IMG/VR virus record: IMGVR_UViG_3300045974_000167
Location: 1-64,000 of that record
DNA: 64,000 nucleotides
Strand: one strand, 5' to 3'
DNA from: a virus
Positions 1 to 18,766 of the stretch are shown in pieces. Numbering within the stretch: the first letter of the stretch is position 1; each line of letters opens with the position of its first letter. The notes below the pieces were generated by a model that saw only the letters and a program-made list of their open reading frames with translations, was not told the DNA's origin and did not search any database. The translations under genes were made by a program, and so were the position numbers.

Positions 1-37
1 CGCCGCATCTCTAGCCGCCTCTCATTCCCTCAACTTA

Positions 38-3000: not shown

Positions 3001-6000
3001 GGAGGCCAGGACTGAATTTGATATCAATGTCGCCAAGAAGGCCGAGGAACTAGACGCCGCATCGCGTAAAACCATCGAGGATTTCCTACGCCAGTTCGGA
3101 AAGGCAGAAACCTCCCAGGCCACTACTAAGACCACCCGGCTTCAGGTAGACGCGAAGATTGCTGAGTTCGAGAAGTTACTCTCCGAACGTGCCGCGAAGA
3201 TCAAGGCGGGCGACTTAGGCGCGGGCGCGGTAGATACCACCACGGCTGAATACGAGCAGTGGTTTGCGATAATGATTCAGGGCTTCAAGGACACCGATGC
3301 TGCGGCCGAAAAGCACGCTAGCGCGATGTCCCAGTTTATGATCCAGGCGCAGAGGAACATGGAAACGTTCCTCGCCTCCGAAATCTATAACGTTGTTAGC
3401 AATGAAGCTAGAGATGCGTTGAAGGAGAGGAAAGAAGCGGAGTTTGTCGCCAAGTTGAAGAAGTCCGGGGTTAAAGAGGGGACTGAGCAGTACAACCGCG
3501 CCCTCCTAGAGTGGCAGAAGAACACCAGCTCTGTTTCCCTCGCGTTTGAGAGCATGGCTGAAGCCTTCTCTAAGGCCCTTCAGAAAATGATTGCAGAGTT
3601 GGCCTCCTCTCAGATCCTTGAGGCTTTGACCAAACTCGCCAAGTTAGTAACCACCTCCATAATGAGTGGTTCTGACTCCACACCGGATACCACCGCACCA
3701 GTACCCTCCTCTATCGTCAATTCCGGTAGGGCGGCTACCGGCGGGTTAATCCGTGGGCCGGGGACTTCTACTTCCGATAGTATCCCGATGCTCCTGTCGA
3801 ATGGGGAGTTCGTAATCCAGGCTTCTGCTGTGCAGAAGTACGGCAAGGAATTTTTCGACAAGGTAAACTCTCAGGATCTATCCACGCAGGAGGATCCCGC
3901 CAAGGGCTTCTCCCGCGCCCCACGGGTTCAGCGGCGGGCAGAGGGCGGATTCATCGCGGCCCCCGGTGCAACGATTGCCGCCCCGGTAGTGGTAGAGCAG
4001 CGCCCGTCGTACACGCCGCCCTCCAAGGTAATCGCCAGCGCGGTCACCTCCTCGCTAGAGGCCATCGAACGGTACAACACCCTGTCGTTCGATAAGGTCG
4101 ATAGCTCCACCCATGATGAGTCTCTAAAGACCTTCAGGGAGAAGTACCTGACCTCGGTGAAGAAGGATTCCTCGACCGTATCGTCGGAGGATTCTTCCAA
4201 GACCGCCAAGAGCACCTACGCCCAGGATATTCTCAAGAACTACACCGAGAATGTTCTGAAGAAGTCCAAGGAGGAAGTCTCCTGGGTAGGCAGTAATACC
4301 AATACAGACAGGCGCACGGCTTCCTCCTCTACTACCTCCGATGAGAAGTCTCGTAAGGACGCCCGGGACGTTAAGGTAAGTTCTCTAGAGGAGAGTGCCC
4401 GCCGTTCGACCCGCGTTGATCTCAACGAGAACACCGCTCGCACCGAGAACACGAACTTAACGGAGGTTACCAACAAGGAAGCGCGGGAACTCCGCGAAGA
4501 GATTACCCGCAAGGACGCCCGCGAGGAGGCCCTACGTAACGTCCGCGAGAGTGCCCTACGGACCTCCCGTGACGACTCTGCTAAGACCTCGCGGGAAACC
4601 TCGTCTAAGACCTCGCACGACGATTCTCTTAAGACCTCCCGGGACGATTCGTCCAAGAAACTGCACGAGGAGATCCTGCGGGATTCCGTAGAATCGGCTG
4701 TAAAGACCTCTAAGGAAAGCGCGGAGCGGCTGTCCAAGGATGCTTCTTCTTCGGTGTCCAGCACGGAAACTCGGCGGCGCGACTCCGCTGAACAGGAGAA
4801 GAATTACCTAGAGTCCGTTCGTAGGACCGCCCAGGATACGTCCACCAAGGCTGTCAGCGAAATCTCTACCAAGAAGATCAGCGAGGATACCCTTCGTACC
4901 TCCCAGGAGAAGGCCCTGCGTGCCGCCAAGGATACGGCGGAAAAGGCTTCCTCCGAGACTATCCTGCGGCGCGTCAACGAGGAGAACCTAGTCTCGTACA
5001 CGGAACACGTTCTCCGTAAGTCCTGGGATACGTACTCCAAGCTGTCCAAGTCGGGGGCCGAAAACACCACCCTCGATAGCCTCTCTTCTACGTCTGCGGA
5101 GCAGGTGTTAAAGCAGTTCAGCAATGACCACTCCGAAAACTACGTAGAGAACGTCCTCCGGTCCTACCGTGAGGACTCTGTAAAGAACTACGGGGTTGAC
5201 TCCCTCAAGAACTACAAGGAATCCACCCTGCGGGATTACACTTTCCACGTAGTCCAGAAGTCCTGGGAGGATTACTACCGCCTTGCCAAGAATGATTCGG
5301 TGAAGAACTCCAAGGATACCTCCGTTAACTCCTTCACCGAATATGTTCTCAGCAAGGCCAGCCGGGAAGTTCTACCCGGTGCCGCCGCAGAGAATATCTC
5401 TGTCCGCGTGCCGAACGAGGGCTACGTTATCAAGCCCGAAATCGTGCGTAAGTACGGAGAGGTCTTCCTCAATAAAATCAACTCATGGTCTGCCCCGGTT
5501 CTGCAATCGATTGCAGGAACTCCGGTCAGCACCTTCCTCCGCAGGGCCGAAGGGGGGATGATTCGCGGCCCAGGAACTTCCACCTCTGATAGCATCCCCA
5601 CGCGCCTCCCTGCTGGATCTTACGTCATTAAAGCATCTACTGTTCAGAAGTACGGCGGGGAATTCCTTGAGAGGTTTAACTCCCTAGCCGCCCCTGTCGG
5701 CGTTCAGCGCCGCGCAGACGGCGGGGCGATCTTCGGGCCGGGGACGGGAACCTCTGACAGCATCCCTGCTCTGGTGTCCAACGGGGAATTCATCGTACAG
5801 GCTGCGGCGGTGCAGAAGTACGGTGTCTCGTTCTTCGACAAGTTAAATTCTCAGCAACTAGCACCCACCATTCCTGCGGTACGCAGGTTCTCCGAAGGTG
5901 GTCTCGTTAGTGGTGGCACCCGGGCTCTTTCCGGGTCTGAGGGCGGCGGCGGGGAAACCACCGTCAATGTCATCAATAACACAGGCCAGGAAACGTCCAC

Positions 6001-6145
6001 GGAGAAGATTAAGCAGCCTGACGGATCTGAAATCATCAACATCGTAATCGGTAAGGTCGCCCAGGACATCCGCAACAACGGCATGGTAGGTCAGTCCATT
6101 CAGTCCACCTTCGGGGCCTCTAGGAAGGGCGTTAATCGTGGCTAG
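38..6145 (+). CDS. Tail tape measure protein (probably begins upstream of window)
   Basis: >2000 aa, Ala-rich helical; hydrophobic segment GLWALIGGWTGVTIAAAAGLWYL; C-terminal GGxIxGPGTxTSDSIP motifs typical of TMP C-termini; followed by tail-tip genes. Confidence 0.9.
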   Translation: MFDSLKKVTGALNEQFVFTKGAADAANTKAIAEAETAAAAEAQAIARKERSLEAVALKKKEIEAEVELRNAARVSAANANKAVAAQTATPTIVASPIQGTQAPNATVAAAVQAKAALTLAEKEYAAAVAVVTEQQAFAAAMTQERIAAEKAMNGEHKNWKTNELIEAERMEGIATRNLTRDLQEQALAREALDIAKAKAASTTSMLSVAATPPPAVIASVETRAALVLAEKEYAEATNLSKIAVNELSAAEVARASALAGTLPAQQVGLAANATATEVLAAAEEDLVLAKEQSVLATIDEALAEDRLRASRLLAATTVPVTEAATAAKVAAAAAEGEYSAAVLRTNVVLSEQAVAQTEVAVATGAAKAAADAKALADARAAAAAAAAAVATTAQGKAALFAANAMKGLWALIGGWTGVTIAAAAGLWYLATRTTELEEATKNLIKARKELNDLTGDPLVLGVKTFDDEVKKQRDVLKGLEFEIAAKKAGPQKIVTSELGSEEGGATVTANVTENEIVVLEQKRDALKKIVELQEKEALVRRGISESYAKESKKLTDLGDEFSRSLKVLTDAQSAMEHISGSKDKPSVMTPKDTLQNTYAAWDIATRLYTEQLKKANGNQAELKAAVQEYTRNMASATSSYWKGIESYANIRDADRLTLGKVAIEWNKKELDQNRKVFDSLELINKKTRELGNSKLTMSAADVKYSKTIEDIETERVRRIEEINLQQLKKVPSATDPSRFTEELRYVIADPKKRAQETDDLTAALNRYAAAAAHARDEEKKKASDDAKEKLAELRAKYSPEGLATKTTGVTQVEILKVHAEIDKLTKIINENLISAGIKGTTVPWTIKLLPNTELPKIPTPIIPPPEGTFVQPAGGEITQEMLDTKHGQILAGLKTEFDTKAAANLTDKERNRLQDEYLDKLSQENEAYQQATASREAVDKIKRSTISPAANGTTYSLNDLSRFGKNDPNPPWLGQGITSEAETTQSAREARTEFDINVAKKAEELDAASRKTIEDFLRQFGKAETSQATTKTTRLQVDAKIAEFEKLLSERAAKIKAGDLGAGAVDTTTAEYEQWFAIMIQGFKDTDAAAEKHASAMSQFMIQAQRNMETFLASEIYNVVSNEARDALKERKEAEFVAKLKKSGVKEGTEQYNRALLEWQKNTSSVSLAFESMAEAFSKALQKMIAELASSQILEALTKLAKLVTTSIMSGSDSTPDTTAPVPSSIVNSGRAATGGLIRGPGTSTSDSIPMLLSNGEFVIQASAVQKYGKEFFDKVNSQDLSTQEDPAKGFSRAPRVQRRAEGGFIAAPGATIAAPVVVEQRPSYTPPSKVIASAVTSSLEAIERYNTLSFDKVDSSTHDESLKTFREKYLTSVKKDSSTVSSEDSSKTAKSTYAQDILKNYTENVLKKSKEEVSWVGSNTNTDRRTASSSTTSDEKSRKDARDVKVSSLEESARRSTRVDLNENTARTENTNLTEVTNKEARELREEITRKDAREEALRNVRESALRTSRDDSAKTSRETSSKTSHDDSLKTSRDDSSKKLHEEILRDSVESAVKTSKESAERLSKDASSSVSSTETRRRDSAEQEKNYLESVRRTAQDTSTKAVSEISTKKISEDTLRTSQEKALRAAKDTAEKASSETILRRVNEENLVSYTEHVLRKSWDTYSKLSKSGAENTTLDSLSSTSAEQVLKQFSNDHSENYVENVLRSYREDSVKNYGVDSLKNYKESTLRDYTFHVVQKSWEDYYRLAKNDSVKNSKDTSVNSFTEYVLSKASREVLPGAAAENISVRVPNEGYVIKPEIVRKYGEVFLNKINSWSAPVLQSIAGTPVSTFLRRAEGGMIRGPGTSTSDSIPTRLPAGSYVIKASTVQKYGGEFLERFNSLAAPVGVQRRADGGAIFGPGTGTSDSIPALVSNGEFIVQAAAVQKYGVSFFDKLNSQQLAPTIPAVRRFSEGGLVSGGTRALSGSEGGGGETTVNVINNTGQETSTEKIKQPDGSEIINIVIGKVAQDIRNNGMVGQSIQSTFGASRKGVNRG

Positions 6146-6515
6146 TTGGCCCTCCGGGTTACCTTCCCCCTTTGCGGAGGGGGAGCCCAGCTACACCCTG
6201 CATGATAACGCTATCCGGCCCGACTCTAAGACCGGGTTCGGCAAGTCTAGGAGAAGGTTCTTCGGCAAGTACGAAACCGTAACGTTCCCCCTGGTTCTAA
6301 CTAAAACCCAGAGAGATATTTTTCAAAACTTCTATTGGACTACGCTTCAAGAAGTGCTACCATTTGATTGGGTGGATTTACGAGAGTACAACGTACCGGC
6401 AGGTTACCGGTTCTCTAAACCCCCCAAGGAAACGTATGTAGCTGGGGATGCCACAGCTTCCGCTAACTCCGAAGCCTACTGGCAGGTAGATGTTGAACTA
6501 GAGCGTATCTCGTAG
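6138..6515 (+). CDS. Distal tail protein (Dit / lambda gpM-like)
   Basis: 125 aa directly after TMP; N-terminal WP, 'G..K.RRR', 'F.W.D' pattern. Confidence 0.75.
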   Translation: MASWPSGLPSPFAEGEPSYTLHDNAIRPDSKTGFGKSRRRFFGKYETVTFPLVLTKTQRDIFQNFYWTTLQEVLPFDWVDLREYNVPAGYRFSKPPKETYVAGDATASANSEAYWQVDVELERIS

Positions 6516-6600
6516 TGGCAATGGAGTGGTTTCTATAGTAGGATCAACCAGTTAATAACAACCAAGAGTCACTCTTGGTGTCCACCCTGGAGGTACTAAA

Positions 6601-7356
6601 ATGAAGCATCTTCGTAAGTTCCTAGTTTTCTCGCTGTTTGCTGCGGCGGCGCTGTCCGCGTCTGCCCAGACCGTCGTTAAGAAGCCTGTTGATAACACCT
6701 CCAAGCCCGGTGCGGTTGTAGAGGATAAGGTCATCAAGGCCAAGGACGTTAAGAAGCCTGATACCAAGGCGTCGGACTCGGTTGATTCCAGCGTTAAGAC
6801 TGCCCCCAAGAGCGCCATCGCCACCGAGCACGGCGAGTTCTTCGTGCAGCTTGTCCGTAACGGGGTTGTCATCGCGGAGGAGATCGCCCCCAACTTCCTC
6901 GCGGACGAGGGTGAGGCCGACTTCCTAGCCTGTTTCTATCAGGCTACCTCTTGCCCCACCTCGTTCACTGTGGGCCTGCTCTCCACCACCTCGACCCCCG
7001 TAGAAAGCTCTAGCTGGGCTTCTCTATCGGCTACTGAGCTAGTTACCGGTACGTCCCCCGGGTACGCTTCGTGGACCGCCGCTCGCACCACCGCAGGTTG
7101 GTACGGCACCACCTCTGGTTCCGCGCCTACCTCTGTCGCCAACGGGACTGGTGGTTGCACGGAGACCGCCTGCGCCCAGGTCAGCACCGCCCAGAACACC
7201 ATTACCGCCTCTGGCAACTGGACGATTGGTGGCCGGTATATCTACATCCGCGCCGCCACCACTAACCGCCTCATCGCGGTAGCCCAGCTCTCGGCCGACC
7301 GCACCCTTCAGTCGGGCGACCAGTTGAACGTGACGTACCGGCAGGCGATGCAGTAA
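6601..7356 (+). CDS. Tail-appendage-like protein with N-terminal signal-peptide-like sequence
   Basis: GGAGG RBS; MKHLRKFLVFSLFAAAALSASA|Q; C-terminal domain resembles 24845..25261. Confidence 0.6.
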   Translation: MKHLRKFLVFSLFAAAALSASAQTVVKKPVDNTSKPGAVVEDKVIKAKDVKKPDTKASDSVDSSVKTAPKSAIATEHGEFFVQLVRNGVVIAEEIAPNFLADEGEADFLACFYQATSCPTSFTVGLLSTTSTPVESSSWASLSATELVTGTSPGYASWTAARTTAGWYGTTSGSAPTSVANGTGGCTETACAQVSTAQNTITASGNWTIGGRYIYIRAATTNRLIAVAQLSADRTLQSGDQLNVTYRQAMQ

Positions 7357-7381
7357 TTATCCGGCGCTCCAGGGGGCCGGG

Positions 7382-7570
7382 ATGCGGGACGCGAGGTATT
7401 TTGTCGTCGAGGGCAGACTCTACCTGTTATCGGGGGAGACAGTCCGTGAATGGACCCGCCGCGAGGCGGGTTTCGGGTGGGTCCATTCTAAGATGCCGCA
7501 CCCGGCCTTCACTGAGATAGATGCCAGGGAAATCAGCGCACAGGGGGCGATGCGCTTGCAGCGCACGTAG
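7382..7570 (+). CDS. Hypothetical protein
   Basis: Fills gap in co-oriented gene string. Confidence 0.5.
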   Translation: MRDARYFVVEGRLYLLSGETVREWTRREAGFGWVHSKMPHPAFTEIDAREISAQGAMRLQRT

Positions 7571-7573
7571 ACC

Positions 7574-8644
7574 GTGGCAACGACCTACCGGATCAAGTAT
7601 CTACAGGCTGTCTTTGAGGAGCGGGGGGATCTAGATACAACCCGGCGTGTATGGTCCGGAGAAGGAAACCCCGCCCTTGAGGCGCTTCCCCGTGAGCAAC
7701 GTCTAAATAAAAATGAGCATGGACTACAATCCCATGCGACTATGCCGGGGCGCGCCCGTTTCGACCCGGACTCCGGGTTTATTCAATCCGGGATTCGCTC
7801 AGTAAAGAAAGACTCGCAGGGTGATTCGGAAATCCCGGTCTGCATGACCTTCACCATGTTTGAGGGACAGCACGAACGCTCCGCTGGTCTAGTGTTTAAT
7901 TTGTCGTGGACTGCTATGGGATTAACCAAGCAGCAATTCCTCGACAATTTAACTGGATCCGTTATTAATTTTTCAATAGCAAGACTCCTCTATAACATTA
8001 TGGCTGGGCCGTACGTCCCGATCACAAAGGGCGGGGTAGAGAAGTGGGCGTTCAAGATTTACGGTGTCGCGGAGGATCAATTTCAGTTCGGCCGTCAACT
8101 AGAAACGGCCGCAGGGTATGAATGGACGTACATGAACCGCTGGTACCCGCGCATCCACCACAAGACGTTCAATAATTATCCTAGCAATAGGGGGTTTGCC
8201 GGGTTGAATGCCCGTAGGTACCAAGCCGATTCCTATTTTTATCATCGTGAGCATACTGTAGCGGCGACTTTCTGGGAGTGGCCTTCTACTGGGACTGCCT
8301 CTCCGCACGCTTCGCAAGGCACCGCCCCGGTCCCCCCGCCGCAGAGTAACGAGCAAGGAGCCCCGCAGCCCTGGAGCACCCCGGATATAACCGCTGTGAT
8401 TCGGGAGATTGTCTCGCGGCCAGGGTTTCTAGATGGAAACCGCCTAGGACTTGTCCTTGGTTTCGATGGATGTTGGGATGATTTAACGACGGCGCGGCTG
8501 TCTGCCGCGAACCCAGGGGGTGGCCCAGGCGGTGGCCCTATGACGTTCGCTTTCGCTGGTGACGCAGATTTCTTCAACGCCGGAACTTGTCAGCCGACGC
8601 TCCAGACATACAACCCGGAACTCAGATTAACGGTGGGTCCGTAA
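7574..8644 (+). CDS. Putative beta-sandwich virion/fibre accessory protein
   Basis: C-terminal 'PDITAVIREIVSRPG...LGLV...PELRLTV' resembles carbohydrate-binding-module-like folds; TAATG coupling to next gene. Confidence 0.55.
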   Translation: MATTYRIKYLQAVFEERGDLDTTRRVWSGEGNPALEALPREQRLNKNEHGLQSHATMPGRARFDPDSGFIQSGIRSVKKDSQGDSEIPVCMTFTMFEGQHERSAGLVFNLSWTAMGLTKQQFLDNLTGSVINFSIARLLYNIMAGPYVPITKGGVEKWAFKIYGVAEDQFQFGRQLETAAGYEWTYMNRWYPRIHHKTFNNYPSNRGFAGLNARRYQADSYFYHREHTVAATFWEWPSTGTASPHASQGTAPVPPPQSNEQGAPQPWSTPDITAVIREIVSRPGFLDGNRLGLVLGFDGCWDDLTTARLSAANPGGGPGGGPMTFAFAGDADFFNAGTCQPTLQTYNPELRLTVGP

Positions 8645-11600
8645 TGGCACCTCGCACAGACTCATTCACCGGGACAACTGGCGCTGCTATCAGCGCCACG
8701 AACTGGTCTGCTGTCTACGGTAGCCTGACGATCCTGACTAACCGGGTACGCGCCTCGGTGGGGAGTTCGGCGGCGCGCTGGAACCCGTCCGACCTAACTT
8801 TTTCACCCGACCAGAAGGCGTCGGCCGCCATGTACGGGGTACCCGTAAATTCAACTGGGTGCGGCCCCGCTGTTCGGATGGGCGCGGACCGCCAGTGTTA
8901 CGCGCTCCTCTCTTACCACTACGACGACGGCGACACGATCACCTACCAGGGGCTCCGACTCTACCGCTTCAATACCAGCGGCGCCGCGGTGGCGCAGCTA
9001 TGGGACTCCGGCGATGTGGGTATCGTGTTCAACGGGGCCGTCGTTTCGGAGCTTGAGATCGTAGGTTCGACGCTGGTCGTCAGGCACGACGGTACCCAAC
9101 TATGGACGGGCACCGACACTACGCTGACTACCGGGCAACCCGGCATCTTCTTTTGGTCTAGCGGCACTGGCTGTATCCTCGACACCTTCTCAGCAGATGA
9201 AGTTGGAGTCGGTGCCGCCGTATACACTGAAACTATTGCAGAGAAGGTTTCTGCCCCGGGGGAAGTTACAGACCGGGCAAATAGGGAATATGAATCACCG
9301 ACCGGGGTAGCTACCTCCGTGGATGTCGTTGCCGATGCGATGGTAGGCAACTTAGCCTTCATCGGGTGTAGCCCCGTCTACAGCGTCACCGGCAACGGGA
9401 CCACTTGGAACCTGCCTGCTGGCACTCAGCCTGGTGACTTGATTCTCCTACTGGGCAAGGGAACTCCGTGGCCCTCTACGGGATGGTCTGCGTTTGGGAG
9501 TTCCTCGGATGACTACTGGAAAATCGCTGGCTCTGAAACTTCGGTGACGGTGATTGCATCCGGCCAAACGTACGGGGTGATCCTGACGTTTAGGTTTACT
9601 GGGCCGATACCCCTTATCGCGTCTGACACAGCGGCGGGCGTGGCGAATGGCGTCAGTCCACGCACTGGGTCCAAGATTCTGGTGGTGTATAAGGCCAACG
9701 GCCTCGCTAACTTGCCAGCCCCCACGCTGGCGGCGGGGGCGTACACGACTCTGCTGGGCGGCGGCGGCACATCCACTGGCTCGGTGTATGTCTTCACCGG
9801 AGCCAACACCACCGTTGCTGGCACTACTGCCAATCAGGGGGTGGCTGTTAGTCCCGGCGCTTGGGGCGGGTTCCAGATCGGAATACAGCCGCTTCCTGTC
9901 ACGGTAGAGGAGGGCGTACAAGAAGGAGCCCAGGCCAAGGATACCGTTGCCGATGTTTTCCACGACATAAACATAGACGAGACCGTATCAGGGGTTGCCC
10001 AGGCCAAAGAAGCACCGCCCTCCGATCCAGAACGGGACCATATCCCCGGCCCGCTGTGGGAAGACATTACCGATGTCGCTACTGCTAAAATAGCAGTTAT
10101 CATGGGTAAGCCGAATACCCAGATTGAGGTGCAGTTTGCCGCATTCGGCGGATCCGACGCCTATTCGGGGCTTGTTAAATCTCGCACGCCAGGTAGTGAC
10201 GGGGTAATTTCTCTCGATAGAGATAAGTACCTGGGCCGCAGGCTCCAGTTAGGTAAAGCTGATCCCGCTGGGACTAACCCTGTAGGGGATCGCGTGATAC
10301 TCCGCGCCGTTAACTCTGCCATCCCCAAGGGCGGGAACGGCCAAGTTGGCAGGGCCACCCTCATCCTCACCCCTGCAACTGTCTGGACGTTTGATGACTC
10401 GCAGGCTGTGGCTGGCCCCATCTGCAAAGTCCACGGATCTCAGTTAAATCCCCAGTCTGTATCCCCTGCGACCGCACTAGCGGAGACTCTTACTGGGGAT
10501 TACGGCACGATTGCCATGCAGTCGGCCTGGGCGGTTAACGACCCGTACATCACGAAGGTCGCGCCAGGGCAGACCACGAATGTCGGACCTACTTGGTTGA
10601 TGGGTGGTCGCGGGCAGCAGACGCACACCAAGGCCCGCCCGCAGAATCCTTGGGAAATTGATGTAACTTCGCTGGTTAATGCCCGTATAACGGCGGCGCA
10701 GGACACCAGTATTTGTCTAGACTTCTCCCCGTCTGGGAGGACTGACCTAAAGACCGTCTGCGAGTTTTACGGCTCCCTGTACCCGGAACTTGCACCCCGG
10801 CTAGAAATTGACCCGTTCGGTGCCAGTAACATCGACATTGTAGGGATAGATTCCGGCACCCCCCGTATGACCGTGACCGTCCCTGTTGGCGGCACGTTGG
10901 CTTCAATCGAATGGGGTTACGATACTACCTACAGCGGGGGGTACGTCACCGGGCCTTCCAAGGTCGATGTGTGGCCCACGGATAACCCATACGATTTCTC
11001 CATGTTGGAGACTTCTGCCAGGGTCTATGTCCGCGTAACTCTGGCCTACGGGGAGGGCGACGACCGCAAGGTGGAATTGCTTAGGCAGTTCGCCACTCCC
11101 AAGGTGTTCCGGCCCGCGCTTACGAAGCTCGCTAGCTACCCAGCAGCTATGCGGCCCCGAGCCCCCATAACTTTGCAATCAAGTGCAGCGGGGGAATCCT
11201 GCTTCTGGGTACAGGACTTCTCCACCACCTGGATTGCATTCAAAGGGTTTACTACCGCCCCTATCTGTATTGATGAGAACGCTGGGACATGGAGTAACGC
11301 ATTCGACCCAGAGGCACTCGCCACTACTGCTACGGGTCCAGCCGGGGCGACTATCTCCGATGTTGGAGCCGCGTACTATGATCACACCTCCGGGGCGTAC
11401 TACCTACCAATAGTCACCCTTAGGGGAGGGCTGTTCGATGTTTCTTACGTACTAGCTCCTACGCATTTCTCTACATCGTGGAATATCTGGGACATGCAGT
11501 TTGTGCGCCCCGATATTAACGGTGGCGGGTACGTCCAGTCCATCAACGGAATCAACTCGGCGGGGGCGATCAACGGTAACAGCCTCGCCATGGGCCGCGT

Positions 11601-14600
11601 AGAGGATTGGCGCACTAACGGAGACCATGACTATTTGTACCCGTTGTTCCTCACACTCAACGTCCAGGGGCGGCTGCGGGTGCTGTCCACTATGGCGTAT
11701 GCCGCTGGGGGGTTCAGCCATTACGTGGTTGCCCCAACCGGATGGACGTTGGAGATCGGGCCGGTCGGAAGCGGCGCTAGACTGGAAGTGGATTTCGATG
11801 CCGACGCAGGAGTAACCCTTCTCAACACGCTGACGCGGGACAGGGTTCCCAGGCTAGTTGTTGCTGCGAGGGCATCTAGCGGCAACTGTTTTATCGCAAC
11901 CCGCACCGGGGATGTCATCACTACCCCCGTCAATGGGTCCGACCATGTTAGGACTCCCGGGACTTGGACTTCGCGTAGCGTGCCCAACTTCCAGAACGCC
12001 TACGTGACCAACCCGATGCCAGCACTCAACGGCATCGTAGACGTTCCCGATGGGGAGAGCACCAACATTGTTCTGCTCCGGTCCTCTGCCCCCACGGTAG
12101 AGTTCCTGCGGGCAGACACCCTTGCGGCTTGTAGGGCTGACGCCCGTGTCTCGCAGAATAGTTTCACAAGTCACGCCGGGACTGCTGAGATGGTTTCGGC
12201 CAACCCGACTCCATGGGGGACATACGGTGGAGCGGCTAACACCCTAACCGGAGGGCTCCAGTGGTATGACGGTCGGATCGTGGATGACCTGCCGACCGCG
12301 TTTTCGGCCCTGATGCAGCATCCTCACGGCGGCGCGACTGGGTTCCGGGTTTCCGGTGGAAATCTATACGCCCAGCGGTACTATGATCGGCTAAGGCTCT
12401 CCCCTGAGACCGCTGCTGCTGTTTCATCTGGGTCTAATATCCTGCCCTGTAACAAGGCGTGGGAGGGTCTCCCGATGGCTGTACTGGTCGGGAATGACAC
12501 TACTGGGTACGATATTTTCACGGCAACGTCTGCCATGGATATCTCCCGTTTGGACGCGCCCACCCGCGACCTCGCGGGGCGCTACACCACGGGGGCGTTG
12601 GAGATCGGAACGAACGTCGTTGCCCAGGACGATTCTGGTCTGCGCGGGCTTCGCAAGGGGCACGGGTACAACACCTTCTATGCGACTTGGCAGTGGGACG
12701 AGGACTCGATCAACGGCGACCACAACGGTCTGATGAACCACGCCGGAACCGGGAAGCTGAAGATCCTCGGCGGCAAGGGGCAGACCGCACGCATCCACAT
12801 CCTCAACACTTCGCTCGGCGGCGGGGCTTGGATCAATGAAGAGTTCTATCCCTATGGTTATTTCCCGCAAGGTGGGTACAACGGCTCGCCCGAATTAATT
12901 GGCGGGCTTGAGTACCCGATGATTCGGGTTCACGTATGGTTCATCTCGCAGGACGGCGGATTTACCTTTGAGCCGGTTCTAGGAACCCAATGGATCCCCT
13001 GCGGGGAAAGTTTCGGGGGCGAGGTAATACTCAATCTTCCCGTATTACAATCTGATAATGTATGGATTACGCATGAAATCCCCAATGATCTAGAGACTTG
13101 GCAACTGAAGGTTACGGAGTGGCGGGCGCGGTCTGCTAATTCTGGGGACACGGCTTACGGGCTTGTGCATAACGTAGCCTCCAACGGGGATTTGATGTAT
13201 CTGGGGGCTAATTCCGCCAAGTTAAGTTTAACCGCATCAGATAGCGAGCTTCTTCCAAGCAACCGCCCGATGCGGGTTTGGGATCCTACGGAGCCGGGTA
13301 ACTTAACTGGTGTTGGGTGCGACTCATGGAAGGGTCTATTACTAGAGGATACGACCACATTAGAGGGTCGAGTATCCAAGTGCCTAATAATCAACTACGG
13401 TGACGAGGACTCCTCCGAGCAGACAGCGGGCCGGAACATGCTGCACGCAATCGATTTCCTACTGGGCGGATCCGCACGAGCAAAAGCTCTATTAAGGAAG
13501 TTCTCGTTCCTATATATCCCCGTCGCGGCGCAGGCCGAGGTTAAATACGGTCGCGCCCGTTATCATTGGGACGCCACCGACAACGGGGACGGGACGTTCC
13601 AGCCCGCGATGCCTGGATCCCTCACGCCGAACGGCACCGCCAAGTACCCGTGGGGTAACTGGGGGAAGGTATTTAGCAGGTTATTGCTAGCTCTATATGA
13701 TCAGTGGGCAGAACATTACCCGGCTACTGCAACGCTCACCAAAGATCAGACGAACTGTGTCTTTTCACTCTGCACTTATCATTGCGATACTCATAACAGA
13801 TACACGCCGCAGCCAGCCCCACTTGTTCCTCCGTTCGTGAACCTGGCTTTCCCAGGAAAAACACCGCAGGAATCGCTCGACCTCTATAAGCAGAGGTTCC
13901 TCGTCACAGCATGGAGGGAGCATGTCGCCAATCAGGAGGCGACCGGTTATGTAGCTCCACTTCAATCGGGCGCTGCCAGCATTCCTCATGGCGGAACGTC
14001 GTTCCTCTATGAGACCTTCTGGAACGCTCCTCTGGCCAAAGTAACTGTGTGGCCAGGGGATGACATCATGCAGAACTTTGCCAAGGCCCATCTAGATGGT
14101 ATCTCCATGGCGGGTGCGGCATTCGATGTATACGACGAAACAATGGAGGACGCTGGTTGGGGGAAGGATACCGTCTATGATACCCGCGTCCAGAATGCAA
14201 TTGCAGCAGAGGCCGTAGAGGCAAAGGGTGTTGTTACCGATAAGGTAACGGGGACTGAGATTCCCGCTGAACGTGTAATTGCTCCCGACGCCAGCGTTAC
14301 GCAGATGCAGGCCGCAGAAGTAGCTGCACAAGCGGCTAAGGCGGGGGATCAGGCACTTGGCGGATTCCTACAGTCCGATGTTGTTACGGGCGCTGCTAAG
14401 GCCGGGGATGTAAGCGACGACCACAAGGCATTCACGGAGGCGGGTACTGGTGGTGCCCAGGCCGGGGATACTTCTACTTCCGGTAGGGTTGCCACCGAAG
14501 CCCAGGCAGGCGCGGCGCAGGCCCCCGGGGCGGTTGCTGATGGAGTTGTTCCCGGGGCCGGTCCCACGATTATTACTGAAACCGTTACCGGGGTGGCTGC

Positions 14601-15117
14601 GGCCGGGGAAACCGTACAGGACTCCGCTCCCCATACTCCGCAAACGATTGCAGAGGTTGTAACCGGTTCAGGTAGGGCTGCGTCCGAGGTAGAGCATATC
14701 CTTGGCGGGGCTAGTTTTGAGGGCAAACCTGTATGGCCGATTTCTCTACAATCCCCGTTCGCAGAGAGCGAACCCTCCTACGCCCCGGTAGATAACTTCA
14801 TTTCGTCTACTGTAGATGTCGGCCCGCCGAAGCAGCGCCGCCGGTTCACTGGGAAGATCGAGATTTTCACCTTCTCGATGATTCTAACCAAGGCCCAGCG
14901 TAACGCCTTCCAGGCGTGGTACTGGGGAAGCCCCCTAATCGGGGGTATTGCGGAAATTACCCCGTTCGTATGGAAAGACTTTAGGAAGTACGGAACCCCC
15001 GCGATATACAAGTTCACCAAGCCGTACAAAGAGAGTTATGTTGCCGGGGATTCTAGAACCTCGTCAACATCAGAGGCGTATTGGCGTATTGATATCGAAC
15101 TGGAGAAATTACTGTAA
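8644..15117 (+). CDS. Giant multidomain tail protein: lectin/Ig-like domains, stalk repeats, M14-carboxypeptidase-like domain, C-terminal Dit paralogue
   Basis: ATG 8644 overlaps upstream TAA; last ~130 aa align with 6138..6515; M14-like motifs at ~12590-14150. Confidence 0.8.
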   Translation: MAPRTDSFTGTTGAAISATNWSAVYGSLTILTNRVRASVGSSAARWNPSDLTFSPDQKASAAMYGVPVNSTGCGPAVRMGADRQCYALLSYHYDDGDTITYQGLRLYRFNTSGAAVAQLWDSGDVGIVFNGAVVSELEIVGSTLVVRHDGTQLWTGTDTTLTTGQPGIFFWSSGTGCILDTFSADEVGVGAAVYTETIAEKVSAPGEVTDRANREYESPTGVATSVDVVADAMVGNLAFIGCSPVYSVTGNGTTWNLPAGTQPGDLILLLGKGTPWPSTGWSAFGSSSDDYWKIAGSETSVTVIASGQTYGVILTFRFTGPIPLIASDTAAGVANGVSPRTGSKILVVYKANGLANLPAPTLAAGAYTTLLGGGGTSTGSVYVFTGANTTVAGTTANQGVAVSPGAWGGFQIGIQPLPVTVEEGVQEGAQAKDTVADVFHDINIDETVSGVAQAKEAPPSDPERDHIPGPLWEDITDVATAKIAVIMGKPNTQIEVQFAAFGGSDAYSGLVKSRTPGSDGVISLDRDKYLGRRLQLGKADPAGTNPVGDRVILRAVNSAIPKGGNGQVGRATLILTPATVWTFDDSQAVAGPICKVHGSQLNPQSVSPATALAETLTGDYGTIAMQSAWAVNDPYITKVAPGQTTNVGPTWLMGGRGQQTHTKARPQNPWEIDVTSLVNARITAAQDTSICLDFSPSGRTDLKTVCEFYGSLYPELAPRLEIDPFGASNIDIVGIDSGTPRMTVTVPVGGTLASIEWGYDTTYSGGYVTGPSKVDVWPTDNPYDFSMLETSARVYVRVTLAYGEGDDRKVELLRQFATPKVFRPALTKLASYPAAMRPRAPITLQSSAAGESCFWVQDFSTTWIAFKGFTTAPICIDENAGTWSNAFDPEALATTATGPAGATISDVGAAYYDHTSGAYYLPIVTLRGGLFDVSYVLAPTHFSTSWNIWDMQFVRPDINGGGYVQSINGINSAGAINGNSLAMGRVEDWRTNGDHDYLYPLFLTLNVQGRLRVLSTMAYAAGGFSHYVVAPTGWTLEIGPVGSGARLEVDFDADAGVTLLNTLTRDRVPRLVVAARASSGNCFIATRTGDVITTPVNGSDHVRTPGTWTSRSVPNFQNAYVTNPMPALNGIVDVPDGESTNIVLLRSSAPTVEFLRADTLAACRADARVSQNSFTSHAGTAEMVSANPTPWGTYGGAANTLTGGLQWYDGRIVDDLPTAFSALMQHPHGGATGFRVSGGNLYAQRYYDRLRLSPETAAAVSSGSNILPCNKAWEGLPMAVLVGNDTTGYDIFTATSAMDISRLDAPTRDLAGRYTTGALEIGTNVVAQDDSGLRGLRKGHGYNTFYATWQWDEDSINGDHNGLMNHAGTGKLKILGGKGQTARIHILNTSLGGGAWINEEFYPYGYFPQGGYNGSPELIGGLEYPMIRVHVWFISQDGGFTFEPVLGTQWIPCGESFGGEVILNLPVLQSDNVWITHEIPNDLETWQLKVTEWRARSANSGDTAYGLVHNVASNGDLMYLGANSAKLSLTASDSELLPSNRPMRVWDPTEPGNLTGVGCDSWKGLLLEDTTTLEGRVSKCLIINYGDEDSSEQTAGRNMLHAIDFLLGGSARAKALLRKFSFLYIPVAAQAEVKYGRARYHWDATDNGDGTFQPAMPGSLTPNGTAKYPWGNWGKVFSRLLLALYDQWAEHYPATATLTKDQTNCVFSLCTYHCDTHNRYTPQPAPLVPPFVNLAFPGKTPQESLDLYKQRFLVTAWREHVANQEATGYVAPLQSGAASIPHGGTSFLYETFWNAPLAKVTVWPGDDIMQNFAKAHLDGISMAGAAFDVYDETMEDAGWGKDTVYDTRVQNAIAAEAVEAKGVVTDKVTGTEIPAERVIAPDASVTQMQAAEVAAQAAKAGDQALGGFLQSDVVTGAAKAGDVSDDHKAFTEAGTGGAQAGDTSTSGRVATEAQAGAAQAPGAVADGVVPGAGPTIITETVTGVAAAGETVQDSAPHTPQTIAEVVTGSGRAASEVEHILGGASFEGKPVWPISLQSPFAESEPSYAPVDNFISSTVDVGPPKQRRRFTGKIEIFTFSMILTKAQRNAFQAWYWGSPLIGGIAEITPFVWKDFRKYGTPAIYKFTKPYKESYVAGDSRTSSTSEAYWRIDIELEKLL

Positions 15118-15596
15118 TGGCTAGGCAACTTTCACTGCCCGCCCTGCGGGCGTTGTTTGCCCAGGAGACCGGGGAAGTATTCCTGATGTGTCTGACGCTT
15201 ACCCATAGCTCATTCCCGGCACCTATCCGGGTAGTTTTTAACAATGAACCTATTACCCGTTACGCCGGGGTATTCGAGCCCGCAGCATTTGAGGTTACTC
15301 TACCTGAGGACGAACAGGATAAGTTACCTCAGATTCAACTGAGCATTGAGAACGTAGATAGATCCATCTCCGAGGCGGTTAGAACCATCGTCGGAAGGGT
15401 TAACGTGACCATGGAGCTGGTATTAGCCAGCTCCCCCAACGTGTTAGAGGTTGGGCCATTCACGTTCCAGTTAATGTCCTGCACCTACGATGCTATGAAA
15501 CTAACTGGGGTACTGGGATTAGAGGACGATTTACTGAATACCTCGTTCCCTAGCTTGACGTACACCCCTAACAACTCCCCCGGGCTATTCCGCTAA
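15117..15596 (+). CDS. Tail tip protein (DUF1833 / gpL-like)
   Basis: 'LFAQETGEVFL..LTLTH', 'F.VTLPED', 'L.IENVD', 'YTP...PGLF'; synteny. Confidence 0.85.
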   Translation: MARQLSLPALRALFAQETGEVFLMCLTLTHSSFPAPIRVVFNNEPITRYAGVFEPAAFEVTLPEDEQDKLPQIQLSIENVDRSISEAVRTIVGRVNVTMELVLASSPNVLEVGPFTFQLMSCTYDAMKLTGVLGLEDDLLNTSFPSLTYTPNNSPGLFR

Positions 15597-15597
15597 T

Positions 15598-15999
15598 ATG
15601 CAACCTTGGGTAGAGTCATACGTAGGACTAGAGTTCGGGGACCACGGGCGCGGGCCGACTTACGACTGTTGGGGACTAGTTAAAACAGTCTTAAGGGAAC
15701 AGTACGGGGTTACTGCCCCCGACTTCGGAACAGACTACACACACACGGAAGATCGTGATACTGTGGTCGGTGCATTCGGTGCCCGTGCTACGGACGAATG
15801 GGTTAAGGTAGAGGACTGCCAGGAGGGAGATGTAATCATCCTCACCATAGCGGGTAAGCCGATGCATTGCGGCATCGTAATAGGCCCCCGCCAAATGCTG
15901 CACATCAGACCTTCTGTTGGGAGTTGCATAGAATCCTATGACCGACCTATCTGGCAGCGCAGAATCGAAGGCTTCTACCGCCATCGTTCTCGCGTCTGA
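15598..15999 (+). CDS. NlpC/P60 tail assembly protein (gpK-like)
   Basis: DCWGLV and HCGI catalytic motifs. Confidence 0.9.
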   Translation: MQPWVESYVGLEFGDHGRGPTYDCWGLVKTVLREQYGVTAPDFGTDYTHTEDRDTVVGAFGARATDEWVKVEDCQEGDVIILTIAGKPMHCGIVIGPRQMLHIRPSVGSCIESYDRPIWQRRIEGFYRHRSRV

Positions 16000-18766
16000 C
16001 GTAGCCCCGATTTTTCCTGCAACTGATTGCAGAGAAATTACCTTAGTCGGGAAACCCCACCCGTTAAAGACTGAGGTATTTCACTCAACCATCCGGGAGG
16101 GGATGAATATCTCCCAGATTCTTGAGGGATTAGACTCCAACCGACTGGATATTCGTCTGAATGGGTGGCGCGTCCCGCAGGATTTGTGGCACCTAGTAAA
16201 GCCTAAGGCCGGAACAACCCTCGAAATCGTCGCATACCCGCAGGGCGGCTCTAAGGGTGGGAAACTCGCGCTCCAAATCCTTGGGGCCTTAGCCATCGTC
16301 GTCCTGTCTGTTGTATCTTACGGCGTCCTATCCGGCCCGTTAGGCACTACCTTCGCAGGTATAATTGCGGCCAGCATCAGCGTGTTGGGCAATCTAGCTC
16401 TAAACGCGCTCATCAAACTCCCTAAGGACGATTCGTTCTCGGATTCAAGTTCAGGTACCGCCAACCCACGACTCACCGGGGTTGGGAACCGGGCGAACCC
16501 CTACGGTACTATCCCCCTAGTTATTGGAGAGTACGTAATCTTCCCCCCGCTAGCTGCGGGAGTCTTCTCCGTTACTGAAGGCGACCAGCAATTCGTAAAT
16601 CTCCTGTTCGATTTCGGGCAAGGGGATTTATTGATCGACCAGCTTAAGTTCGGCTCTACGAATATCGAAACCTTCGGCGGGGATGTGGTTTACGAGGTCG
16701 GCGGGCCTTCTGCCCCCCCGATGCTGTACCGTAACGACGTAGATGAGGCCGAGATTTCGTACCCGTTTGAACAGGTGAATCTGCCCGTTACACGGGTTAC
16801 CGCGACGAATGTTAATGAAATTGGGGTAGATTTCTCGTTCCCCCAAGGGTTGTTCGGGGTTAACTCTGAGGGGAACATTTACCCAGGCACGACTCAACTA
16901 AAGGTAGAGGTTCGTGCCATCGGGGAAGCCTGGGTAAACACCGCCTCCCTTGGAGAGTTCACCTCTGTTGGGTGGAAAACTGCGAAGGCAACTGCGACCA
17001 ACACTAACACCACGGCCAAGGGGTCAGGAGCCACCGCGTATTGGGAAGTCTCCTCCTTTACCAAGATCCCATTCACTACCGGCCTAGTAATCGTCCCTCC
17101 CAAAGACTTCACAGGTCGGCAGTTTGAAATCCAAGTCACGCTGCTCGCTACTGAATTCGGGTTAACCGAGAAGTCGTACAACCATATCTTTAACGAAGAT
17201 CACGCCAGCCCGATCCCTATCCCCCTTAACTTTGAGGAAGATCCGACTGTAATGGTCGTGCTCCCCCTCTCTTTTGTGGGCGTAGGGGTGATTAAGCCAG
17301 AGCCCCTGCTGCCCGCCGATTACACGGTTAGCGGCGCAGGCAATAGGTACATCACGCTAAACACGGCCAACCTAAACGTGCAGCGTGTGAACTCCCCCAC
17401 CGGGATTGGTGGGTTCGTATCCATCGGATACAAGGTAAACGACACCCGCGCCTTGAGTAAGGCCCAGGCCGTTACTTGGTCTACCCTAAGGTCAACCACC
17501 TACCGGTGCCCAAGCACTACGCCCACCACCAAAATCGCCATGAAACTTCGGGCGAGTGAGGAATTAAAGGGTAACGTAAACCAGTTAAGCGGTAGAGTCC
17601 GTCAGCGCATCCATGTCTATTCCGGTTTACCTGGGGAAGACATCAACAACCATGAAACGTGGGCGTTGCAGCCTAGTCGAAACCCGGCCTGGATTTATTA
17701 CTGGTTGCTTACTGAATGCCCCGCTAACCCACGACTAGTAGACTCTTCTAGGGTCGATGTACTAGCCTTGTATTCCTGGGCGCAGTATTGTGATTCATAC
17801 GGGTTCGTGTATAGCTCGCTGTTAGATTCGTCTTCTACGCTGGGGCAGATATTAATCGATGTCTGCGCCGCTGGGCGTGCTACTTTCTGTAACCGCGATG
17901 GGAAGTACAGCATCGTTCGTGACGTTCAGCAGTCAGCCCCCGTACAATACTTCACCCCGAACAATAGCTCTGGGTTTACCGGAACAAGAATGTTCCCGGA
18001 TAAAATTCATTGCTTGATCTGTAAGTTCCCTAACCCCGCCGCAGGATATCAGGAGGATGAGTGCCGGGTGTACGACCAAAACTACTCGGACGCCACCCCT
18101 GATTTGAAGACAGAGGCTATTACATTCTCTGGCATCCCGTCCCCGGATGCTATTTGGCGGCTGGCGAGGTACCACCTTGCTGTGTCCCGGCTGCGGCAGA
18201 ATGAATACACCTGGAAAACTGATATCGAGCATATCGTCTGTCAGCGCGGCGACCTCGTGAAGTTCAACCACGATGTCGTGAACTGGGGTTCCGGGTTCTC
18301 ACGCATCAAGTCAATTGTGGGATCTGTTATCACGCTTGATGAACCCATCACCCTGTCGGACGGTACGTACACCCTCAGAGTTCGTAAACAGGACGGTACG
18401 AGCGTTGCGGCCTCCTGTACCTATTCCACCCCCGGCGTCTTTATCGGATCGCTCCCGGGGGCGTACGCTGGCGACCTCGCAATGATCGGAACGGTCGGCC
18501 AAGAATCCGTAAATCTGATCATCACCAAGATCACACCCGGCCAGGATCTAGTTGCTACCATCTCTGCCGTGGATGAGGCCCCCGAAGTTTACTCAGTGGA
18601 TACCCCGGTTCCTGCCGGATGGTTCAACTCTACAATCGCCCAGCCGTACCATGACCCTCCTAATCCGCCATCCATAAAGATTACGAACGGGGAAAGTATT
18701 GGGACCGATTATGAGCTTGATATTGTTGTTTTCCCCGGGGTACAGTATTCCAACACAGGAATTTAG
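15938..18766 (+). CDS. Tail tip / host-specificity protein (gpI+gpJ/TipJ-like)
   Basis: N-terminal ubiquitin-like gpI part plus hydrophobic segment; 'N.ANPYG.IP', 'SRNPAW', 'RDGKYSIV.D', 'RGDLV' motifs. Confidence 0.88.
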   Translation: MTDLSGSAESKASTAIVLASDVAPIFPATDCREITLVGKPHPLKTEVFHSTIREGMNISQILEGLDSNRLDIRLNGWRVPQDLWHLVKPKAGTTLEIVAYPQGGSKGGKLALQILGALAIVVLSVVSYGVLSGPLGTTFAGIIAASISVLGNLALNALIKLPKDDSFSDSSSGTANPRLTGVGNRANPYGTIPLVIGEYVIFPPLAAGVFSVTEGDQQFVNLLFDFGQGDLLIDQLKFGSTNIETFGGDVVYEVGGPSAPPMLYRNDVDEAEISYPFEQVNLPVTRVTATNVNEIGVDFSFPQGLFGVNSEGNIYPGTTQLKVEVRAIGEAWVNTASLGEFTSVGWKTAKATATNTNTTAKGSGATAYWEVSSFTKIPFTTGLVIVPPKDFTGRQFEIQVTLLATEFGLTEKSYNHIFNEDHASPIPIPLNFEEDPTVMVVLPLSFVGVGVIKPEPLLPADYTVSGAGNRYITLNTANLNVQRVNSPTGIGGFVSIGYKVNDTRALSKAQAVTWSTLRSTTYRCPSTTPTTKIAMKLRASEELKGNVNQLSGRVRQRIHVYSGLPGEDINNHETWALQPSRNPAWIYYWLLTECPANPRLVDSSRVDVLALYSWAQYCDSYGFVYSSLLDSSSTLGQILIDVCAAGRATFCNRDGKYSIVRDVQQSAPVQYFTPNNSSGFTGTRMFPDKIHCLICKFPNPAAGYQEDECRVYDQNYSDATPDLKTEAITFSGIPSPDAIWRLARYHLAVSRLRQNEYTWKTDIEHIVCQRGDLVKFNHDVVNWGSGFSRIKSIVGSVITLDEPITLSDGTYTLRVRKQDGTSVAASCTYSTPGVFIGSLPGAYAGDLAMIGTVGQESVNLIITKITPGQDLVATISAVDEAPEVYSVDTPVPAGWFNSTIAQPYHDPPNPPSIKITNGESIGTDYELDIVVFPGVQYSNTGI

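Follow-up and report, generated by a model that had tools for sequence, protein, structure and literature searches.

Free and giant-fused copies of a distal tail protein bracket a gene cassette that an uncultured siphophage shares with an unrelated phage

Why should a siphophage carry two copies of its distal tail protein (Dit), one free and the other at the C-terminal end of a protein of 2,157 residues? The question is raised by bases 1–64000 (hereafter, the window) of an 83,559-bp linear virus contig from IMG/VR (record IMGVR_UViG_3300045974_000167; CheckV completeness estimate 87%), a metagenome contig obtained from a single sample and derived from an uncultured pond siphophage. A first-pass annotation of this DNA had noted the two copies, with an inserted cassette between them, and had explained them by duplication plus cassette capture. 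Here, we report that the copies are paralogs, that the fusion is intact, and that the cassette recurs in an unrelated phage, where the giant protein ends in a different Dit. On balance, we favor the reading that these genes form a tail-tip module with a portable adhesion cassette, in which the giant would be anchored through its Dit domain in a mixed ring of three plain and three loaded subunits and would act as a polymer-binding arm.

The free and the fused Dit

The genes treated here, from the tape measure protein (TMP) gene through M1, orf251, orf356, the giant, L, K, and the I/J-like gene to the S74 fiber gene, are all on the plus strand. The part of the locus that carries the argument consists of the following features (G008 is the second phage, described below):

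2..6145, plus strand: TMP; its 5' end is cut by the contig start, and the 2,047 residues seen have the coiled-coil-rich, repetitive translation usual for a TMP; upstream of M as in relatives
6138..6515, plus strand: M1, free Dit of 125 residues, modeled as the lambda gpM type, with a GTG start and an 8-nt overlap with the TMP gene
6561..6579, no strand assigned: perfect 8-bp hairpin in the 85-nt spacer between M1 and orf251, at the left edge of the cassette and just before the orf251 ribosome-binding site
6601..7356, plus strand: orf251, first cassette gene, 251 residues by translation; homolog o275 in G008
7574..8644, plus strand: orf356, second cassette gene, an orphan of 356 residues; homolog o352 at the equivalent position in G008
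8644..14733, plus strand: body of the giant (residues 1–2030), homologous to the 2,151-residue giant of G008
14734..15117, plus strand: M2, second Dit domain, forming the C-terminus of the giant; its stop overlaps the ATG of L

Aligned by BLASTP, residues 4–124 of M1 and residues 2050–2175 of the open reading frame (ORF) 8587..15117 (nucleotides 14734–15111) are identical at 65 of 126 positions (52%, E 2e-40), with gaps confined to one 5-residue insertion; the full-length match to the 125-residue gene described in the first-pass annotation is thus borne out. Exactly two copies, M1 and M2, were found by a profile search of the whole contig (M2 profile E 5e-39). M2 retains the invariant family residues W, P, R, and F plus the DN...G..K.RRRF loop, and M1 is intact, with all invariant residues kept.

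Both belong to a family (hereafter, the M family) for which a profile search of 1.84 billion representatives yielded 2,937 members, mostly 115–125 residues long. The family has no Pfam model. Neither M1 nor M2 has any Pfam match even at E <= 10, including PF05939 (Phage_min_tail), for which sub-threshold matches were seen only in the tandem relatives P0118 and P0127, and including DUF2460 (PF09343). Among PHROGs, the giant was matched at its Dit end only. A PDB profile search with the M family did not find lambda gpM by sequence and returned only spurious antibody matches. M1 and M2 constitute a sequence family separate from PF05939, with the same fold and gene position.

The fold was assessed from an AlphaFold2 model of M1 built on a 50-sequence alignment (pLDDT 87.4), which combines a beta-sandwich with one helix and with a long loop of lower confidence. 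Foldseek gave weak matches, all of them to tail-tube-fold proteins. In VIA-align, with siphophage Dits in the top ranks, the matches include the Sf11 tail chain 9occ_C (Z 11.9), lambda gpM 8iyk_E (Z 11.2; 105/109 residues aligned), the RcGTA chain 6tba_6A (Z 9.6), the T1 tail tip chain 9l9p_H (Z 9.5), and the T5 Dit pb9 (Z 8–8.9). The root-mean-square deviation of the top four matches is high (6–7 Å), probably due to the long loop. Since the modeled fold agrees with gpM, T1, Sf11, and T5 pb9 and the gene stands between TMP and the hub, M1 is, by its model, a Dit of the lambda gpM type, and the 52% full-length identity would give M2 the same fold. The assignment of both copies to Dit made in the first-pass annotation is retained on these grounds.

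The comparison with cassette-free relatives, which had been suggested earlier, is provided by L004, L006, L007, and two cultured phages, Curvibacter phage P26059A and Nitrincola phage 1M3-16. All of them have the order TMP-M-L-(K)-J, M being small and present once, and the two cultured phages resemble the phage of the window in genome size. The closest relative of M1 is P0004 (70% identity). M1, P0004, and M2 form one clade (aLRT 92; FastTree 0.86), with M2 as its long branch, and M2 would thus derive from the same Dit lineage as M1.

The fusion is continuous in the contig. The giant ORF is free of stops from 8587 to 15117, and its ATG at 8644 overlaps the TAA of orf356 (TAATG), giving the predicted length of 2,157 residues. 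M2 opens with a WP motif, and the approximately 15 codons preceding it contain no in-frame ATG, GTG, or TTG. A free M2 produced by internal initiation is ruled out by this absence, and the earlier statement that the second copy lacks its own start and is fused to about 2,030 residues stands.

It is highly improbable that the fusion or the duplication is an artifact of chimeric assembly or of erroneous sequencing. Such a concern is natural for a metagenome contig of one sample, and the sole supporting run may be the source sample. However, a Logan contig, probably of the same pond sample but made with a different assembler, spans positions 5500–16000 with 0 differences, and no stop or frameshift precedes position 14728 in either assembly. 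The only run containing the stretch, probably the source sample itself, provides neither independent confirmation nor a basis for inferring habitat. Misassembly through a repeat is ruled out, as M1 and M2 have no DNA-level similarity left and the assembler could not have joined contigs through them. Finally, G008, which comes from another data set, shows an equal architecture.

The usual gene order resumes immediately after M2, as the first-pass annotation had it:

15117..15596, plus strand: L-position hub protein, DUF1833 (PF08875, E 5e-22; phrog_396 "minor tail protein")
15598..15999, plus strand: K-position NlpC/P60 protein (PF00877, E 7e-13)
15938..18766, plus strand: fused I/J-like central tip protein, N-terminal part, 942 residues (phrog_31 "central tail fiber J", E 7e-81; Pfam FNIII-A_GpJ, Phage-tail_3, and weak Lambda_tail_I)
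18778..21690, plus strand: distal J/fiber protein of 970 residues with a C-terminal S74 intramolecular chaperone (PF13884, E 5e-14; many tail-fiber PHROGs)

The J function seems to be split between the last two genes: the 942-residue protein combines a weak gpI signal with N-terminal J domains, and the 970-residue protein, which ends in the S74 chaperone, aligns with the distal portion of the J profile (phrog_31 positions 900–1179).

The cassette and its counterpart in an unrelated phage

The interval from M1 to M2 (about 8.2 kb) is occupied by a three-gene cassette, orf251-orf356-giant. Orf251 starts with a signal peptide or anchor, continues with a Lys/Asp-rich linker, and includes a beta-rich domain with four cysteines; it weakly matches phrog_8123. 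No Pfam or NCBIfam match was found for orf356, for which the public gene call has a later start, yielding 300 residues. The first 450 residues of the giant are variable and open with a possibly ConA-like domain, residues 450–2000 form a conserved core, and residues ~1850–2030 (about 180 residues) form a repeat-bearing Ala/Gly/Val/Thr linker, also conserved in G008.

The cassette contains fewer promoter-like sites than shuffled sequence and about as many terminator-like sites, i.e., there is no signal of an internal promoter or terminator. The hairpin at 6561..6579 is not followed by a T-run on the plus strand and is not a clear terminator. The same spacer (6516–6600) contains a CA-ATGGAG-TG element at ~6521–6530. 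One copy of a genome-wide TGCA-N6-TGCA palindrome (TGCAAACGATTGCA) lies within the giant gene at 14639–14652, just upstream of M2.

The sole homolog of orf356 in the protein collection led to G008, a viral genome that is complete at 58.8 kb and bears direct terminal repeats. Its gene order is TMP-o275-o352-giant8-o117-BR0599-type hub-Phage-tail_3 protein. The product of o275 (L019 9109–9936) is 69% identical to that of orf251, the most conserved gene of the cassette; o352 is 42.5% identical to orf356, and giant8 (2,151 residues) is 44.7% identical to the window giant over 1,871 residues. None of the flanking tail genes of G008 match those of the window, and essentially no tblastx similarity between the two genomes lies outside the cassette.

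The tail of G008 is of the RcGTA type, and its o117 is a free DUF2460 Dit (PF09343, E 6e-12). The last ~118 residues of giant8 are likewise a DUF2460 domain (E 2e-14), 34% identical to the adjacent o117 (E 4e-20). The BLAST alignment of the two giants ends at residue 2016 of the window giant, just before M2. In a forced global alignment, identity is 18–34% at the N-terminus, 45–74% in the core, and 14–22% beyond residue 2000, i.e., in the anchor. Clearly, then, the bodies are homologous, and each anchor resembles the free Dit of its own phage far more than it resembles the anchor of the other giant.

Base composition shows the same partition. In the window, the GC content of the giant body is 0.581 vs. 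0.52 in the flanks (0.58–0.61 for the giant body and orf251, 0.548 for orf356), and the anchor M2 (0.518) is level with its neighbors M1 (0.519) and L (0.515). In G008, the GC content at third codon positions is 0.76–0.85 in the cassette body, 0.89 in the anchor, 0.88 in o117, and 0.88–0.92 in the flanks. The cassette body thus deviates from the flanks in both genomes and the anchors match them, which agrees with a mobile cassette and a host-matched anchor.

Taken at the sequence level, these data identify the cassette as a module portable between unrelated phages. The most economical history would be that the arm cassette moves and receives its anchor end from the Dit lineage of the resident phage, or exchanges it with that lineage. 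The earlier explanation by duplication plus capture is refined accordingly: M1 and M2 are paralogs, and the recurrence of the portable cassette in G008 shows that this was not a one-off event. Metagenome scans for the context of relatives found nothing.

Both orf251 and o275 start with a hydrophobic helix resembling a signal peptide or anchor, followed by a variable charged linker and by the four-Cys domain, 69% identical between them. Distant homologs of the C-terminal domain of orf251 (169–171 residues) were observed downstream of terminase/portal-sized ORFs in L023 and L024, the context being judged by ORF size alone. Judged by its sequence, orf251 is an exported companion of the tail adhesin and could be, for example, a receptor-masking or superinfection-exclusion partner or an assembly factor. 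A parallel for the former is Llp of T5, which acts on pb5.

Fused relatives and the possible role of the arm

Fusions were surveyed among the best 150 of the 2,937 M-family representatives. Proteins with N-terminal cargo and a C-terminal M domain, as in the window, include P0009 (1,263 residues, two polysaccharide-lyase domains), P0065 (1,316 residues, fn3/Ig domains), P0136, P0017, and a group of ~311-residue proteins. The reverse order, N-terminal M and C-terminal cargo, was found in P0035 (SASA esterase), P0107 (beta-helix), P0029 (PKD and F5/8-C), and P0096 (PKD and a weak GDSL lipase match). Genome context is available for P0009 and P0065, which were placed on the viral contigs G001 (96.9 kb, direct terminal repeats, complete) and G004; a locus scan for P0017 found nothing.

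A further group of proteins, from metagenomes, contains two M domains in a single chain: M-M in P0037, P0118, P0067, and P0042, M-M-DUF1833 (that is, M-M-L) in P0127, and M-Laminin_G_3-M (M-lectin-M) in P0032. Locus scans for P0032 returned only unrelated LamG-domain loci. The M-M linkers are 8–16 residues long, and no Met is found at the junction before the second WP motif, so read-through of two neighboring genes does not appear to account for these chains. The halves are 30–67% identical. In P0032, P0042, and P0127, the first and the second domains fall into separate clades, indicating an old and maintained split, and P0118 and P0067 are independent duplications. The three architectures suggest pseudo-hexameric Dit rings built from trimers, and even Dit-hub fusions.

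Because other fused members of the family carry glycan-active cargo, the arm of the window phage is most likely, by analogy, a surface-polymer adhesin with a possible hydrolytic domain. It would bind, and perhaps process, a polymer of the host surface, with the fast-evolving N-terminal ~450 residues setting specificity. This part is the most divergent between the two giants (18–34% identity), as expected of a specificity determinant.

Direct annotation of the giant yielded few leads, and the lectin-like, stalk, and enzyme-like domains of the first-pass annotation are candidate assignments. NCBIfam gave only a sub-threshold DNRLRE match (E 0.044), the best score of the core in the Atlas search (protein-language-model neighbors) was 0.78, and a homolog search with the central 1,032 residues found none. 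From pieces of giant8, nothing beyond weak PQQ_2 and single Asp-box hints was obtained; a sialidase-like propeller is unsupported, with just one Asp-box per giant. Another lead is a set of residues in the conserved core:

13408..14013, plus strand: possible altered M14-carboxypeptidase-like motif set (D-x-x-E ... H ... E)

These residues are invariant in both giants (D320, E323, H448, and E521 of alignment A5), with spacing 3/128/73. They resemble the zinc-binding and catalytic residues of M14 enzymes, Asp standing in place of the first zinc-binding His; the spacing in bovine carboxypeptidase A (M14) is 3/127/74. No Pfam match at E <= 5 and no PDB profile match was found for this set.

The giant also contains several repetitive or conserved inter-domain stretches. 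Repeated ~15-residue motifs of the form [ED]xVTGxAxAx[DE] occur in linkers rich in Ala, Gly, Val, and Thr, at 14191–14733 (residues ~1850–2030) and at residues ~200–250 and 435–480. The segment HDxNxxExVxxVAQAKEAPPxDPERDHxPGPL (residues ~440–471) is near-invariant between both giants despite its inter-domain place and could be a docking or processing site.

A mixed ring and its rivals

As both copies of Dit have been kept, we propose that they share one ring. Of the two outcomes named in the first-pass annotation, a hetero-oligomeric ring and a second ring, the former has the better support. M2 would take the place of a subunit in the tube-closing ring of the tail and would thereby anchor the giant covalently to the virion. 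Three M1 and three giant::M2 subunits would alternate at odd and even positions, resulting in three arms. The ~2,030-residue body of each would point outward on the flexible repeat linker, about where the side fibers of lambda dock non-covalently.

Structures of known tails provide a context for such an arrangement, as the odd and even positions already differ in lambda and RcGTA in conformation and in the partner below, i.e., the hub or the central fiber. In the gpM ring of lambda, two conformers alternate above a ring to which gpL contributes three HDI domains and gpJ three HDII domains (PMC10721106). In RcGTA, odd Dit subunits touch the hub and even ones the megatron (PMC7296036). The Stf collar of Ur-lambda, situated at the gpV/gpM junction, touches K2 and W6 of gpM (PMC12617516). 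Contacts of these residues with an external collar place the N-terminus outside the ring, so that an N-terminal fusion would point outward. In P0127, the M-M-L chain implies two M per L, the same ratio as the six gpM and three gpL of lambda.

The ring could be arranged otherwise. One possibility, which we regard as unlikely but the most serious of the alternatives, is two homo-hexameric rings, in which M1 would form the ordinary ring and six giant::M2 subunits would be stacked above or below it as an added collar disc with six arms. Tube-fold rings stack by nature, M2 has the entire conserved loop motif, and the cargo::M proteins of G001 and G004, as the sole Dits of their phages, presumably homo-hexamerize. 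However, the 2:1 ratio of P0127 is that expected of one ring over a trimeric hub, and the odd/even asymmetry of lambda and RcGTA gives a reason for two paralogs within one ring. The M-M linkers of 8–16 residues also suit neighboring positions, although this is not proof.

Less likely still are alternative rings, with tails built from either M1 or giant::M2, yielding armed and unarmed virions, or with a ratio set by expression, i.e., bet-hedging or a mosaic ring. Both forms appear competent, given that fused-only and free-only phages occur. M1 has a Shine-Dalgarno-like AGGAAGGG upstream of its start and is translationally coupled to TMP, as M2 is to L, so both would be made in one operon. On the other hand, there is no regulatory switch between M1 and M2, with no excess of promoter-like or terminator-like sites, and the recurrence of covalent M-M proteins favors a fixed pairing.

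We find it improbable that M1 is a redundant leftover in the course of being lost, after recombination had brought in orf251-orf356-giant::M2 and the fused protein had taken over as the Dit. The cassette does look horizontally acquired, and phages with a fused Dit as their sole Dit exist. But M1 is intact in all its invariant residues and has the shorter branch, M2 being the faster-evolving copy; protein identity of 52% with no DNA similarity indicates that both have survived for long; and the unrelated G008 keeps a free-plus-fused pair at 34% identity.

Several observations weigh against the mixed ring with polymer-binding arms. That both forms are present in the virion and share one ring is something we infer. 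G001 and G004 have no detected M other than a cargo::M fusion, placed immediately between TMP and L. It is therefore probable that a fused Dit is able to form a complete ring unaided, and a separate ring with six arms or alternative rings would then be conceivable in the window phage; assembly, as such N-terminally loaded sole Dits show, does not strictly require a free copy. The single-chain M-M proteins are known here from their protein sequences. Only two carriers of the cassette, the window phage and G008, were found. As for the arm, neither the whole giant nor its 300–530-residue pieces have a Pfam match at E <= 5, PDB sequence and profile searches and a tblastn search of 50,697 phage genomes gave no match, and the AlphaFold2 model of residues 1270–1870, made from a two-sequence alignment, is unusable (pLDDT 31.8). 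The Atlas neighbors of the first 200 residues are ConA-like families with scores of 0.92–0.94, a level that shuffled sequences sometimes reach.

The proposed module can be compared with several known systems. Lambda gpM (PDB 8IYK; PMC10721106), like M1, follows TMP and is a minimal tube-like beta-sandwich with a helix and a long loop; lambda, however, has a single gpM gene with no extension, whereas here a second copy bears 2,030 extra N-terminal residues. The evolved Dits of lactococcal, streptococcal, and Lactobacillus siphophages (PMC6669499, PMC7533335, PMC10688798) serve, as M2 would, as display platforms for host-binding modules. These are two-domain SPP1-type proteins encoded by one gene, and their C-terminal galectin domain carries inserted carbohydrate-binding modules a few hundred residues long. 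In contrast, the present case combines a ring-only domain of 125 residues lacking a galectin domain, N-terminal cargo, a chain of 2,157 residues, and an undecorated paralog beside it. Hence, the comparison with evolved Dits drawn in the first-pass annotation is valid as regards the existence of decorated Dits, but their galectin-insertion architecture does not apply.

Lateral appendages also emerge where the tube meets the Dit ring in the Stf collar of Ur-lambda (PMC12617516) and in the p132/pb1 collar of T5. Both attach non-covalently via a dodecameric collar domain, whereas the arm would be attached covalently through a ring subunit, if the proposal holds. Receptor-binding proteins usually attach to a baseplate protein through an N-terminal fiber adaptor; in the giant, a copy of the recipient's ring protein at the C-terminus is the anchor.

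Duplication and fusion of tube-fold proteins have other precedents, e.g., pb6 of T5 is a tandem-duplicated tube protein, and Hcp-effector fusions exist in type VI secretion systems. Paralogous tube-fold domains share one six-membered ring in lambda, with three gpL HDI and three gpJ HDII domains (PMC10721106), and in the Hcp2-Hcp3 heterohexamer of Bacteroides (PDB 9VNE). None of these hetero- or pseudo-hexameric examples is a Dit ring, and none is a free-plus-giant-fused pair from separate genes; the M-M and M-M-L single chains are their Dit counterpart. A host recognition module shared by distant Alteromonas phages (PMC10579305) moves between phages with a recipient-adapted attachment end, as the cassette does here. 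In the titles and abstracts that the literature searches covered, no hetero-hexameric Dit and no Dit serving as a C-terminal anchor is reported.

A broader and more tentative generalization, for which we see a little less than an even chance, is that obligate hetero-hexameric Dit rings have evolved repeatedly, with a plain paralog and a second paralog that acts as a universal socket for portable, giant arms. On transfer, the anchor would be replaced by a copy of the recipient's Dit ("copy the ring subunit"), and the rule would extend across gpM-type and GTA-type tails.

Decorated Dits have been described mainly for Gram-positive phages and as modest insertions within a single gene. The locus described here shows that an arm of more than 2,000 residues can have a ring-only, lambda-type Dit as its C-terminal anchor, that a plain paralog is kept beside the fused Dit in two unrelated tail types, and that the arm is a mobile cassette with an anchor end matching the ring protein of each host phage. 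The natural M-M, M-M-L, and M-lectin-M chains could be used to test the ring arrangement without the uncultured phage. If the mixed ring is true, the break from six-fold to three-fold symmetry at the tail tip would be encoded in two genes, and a simple design rule would exist for attaching host-binding modules to siphophage tails.

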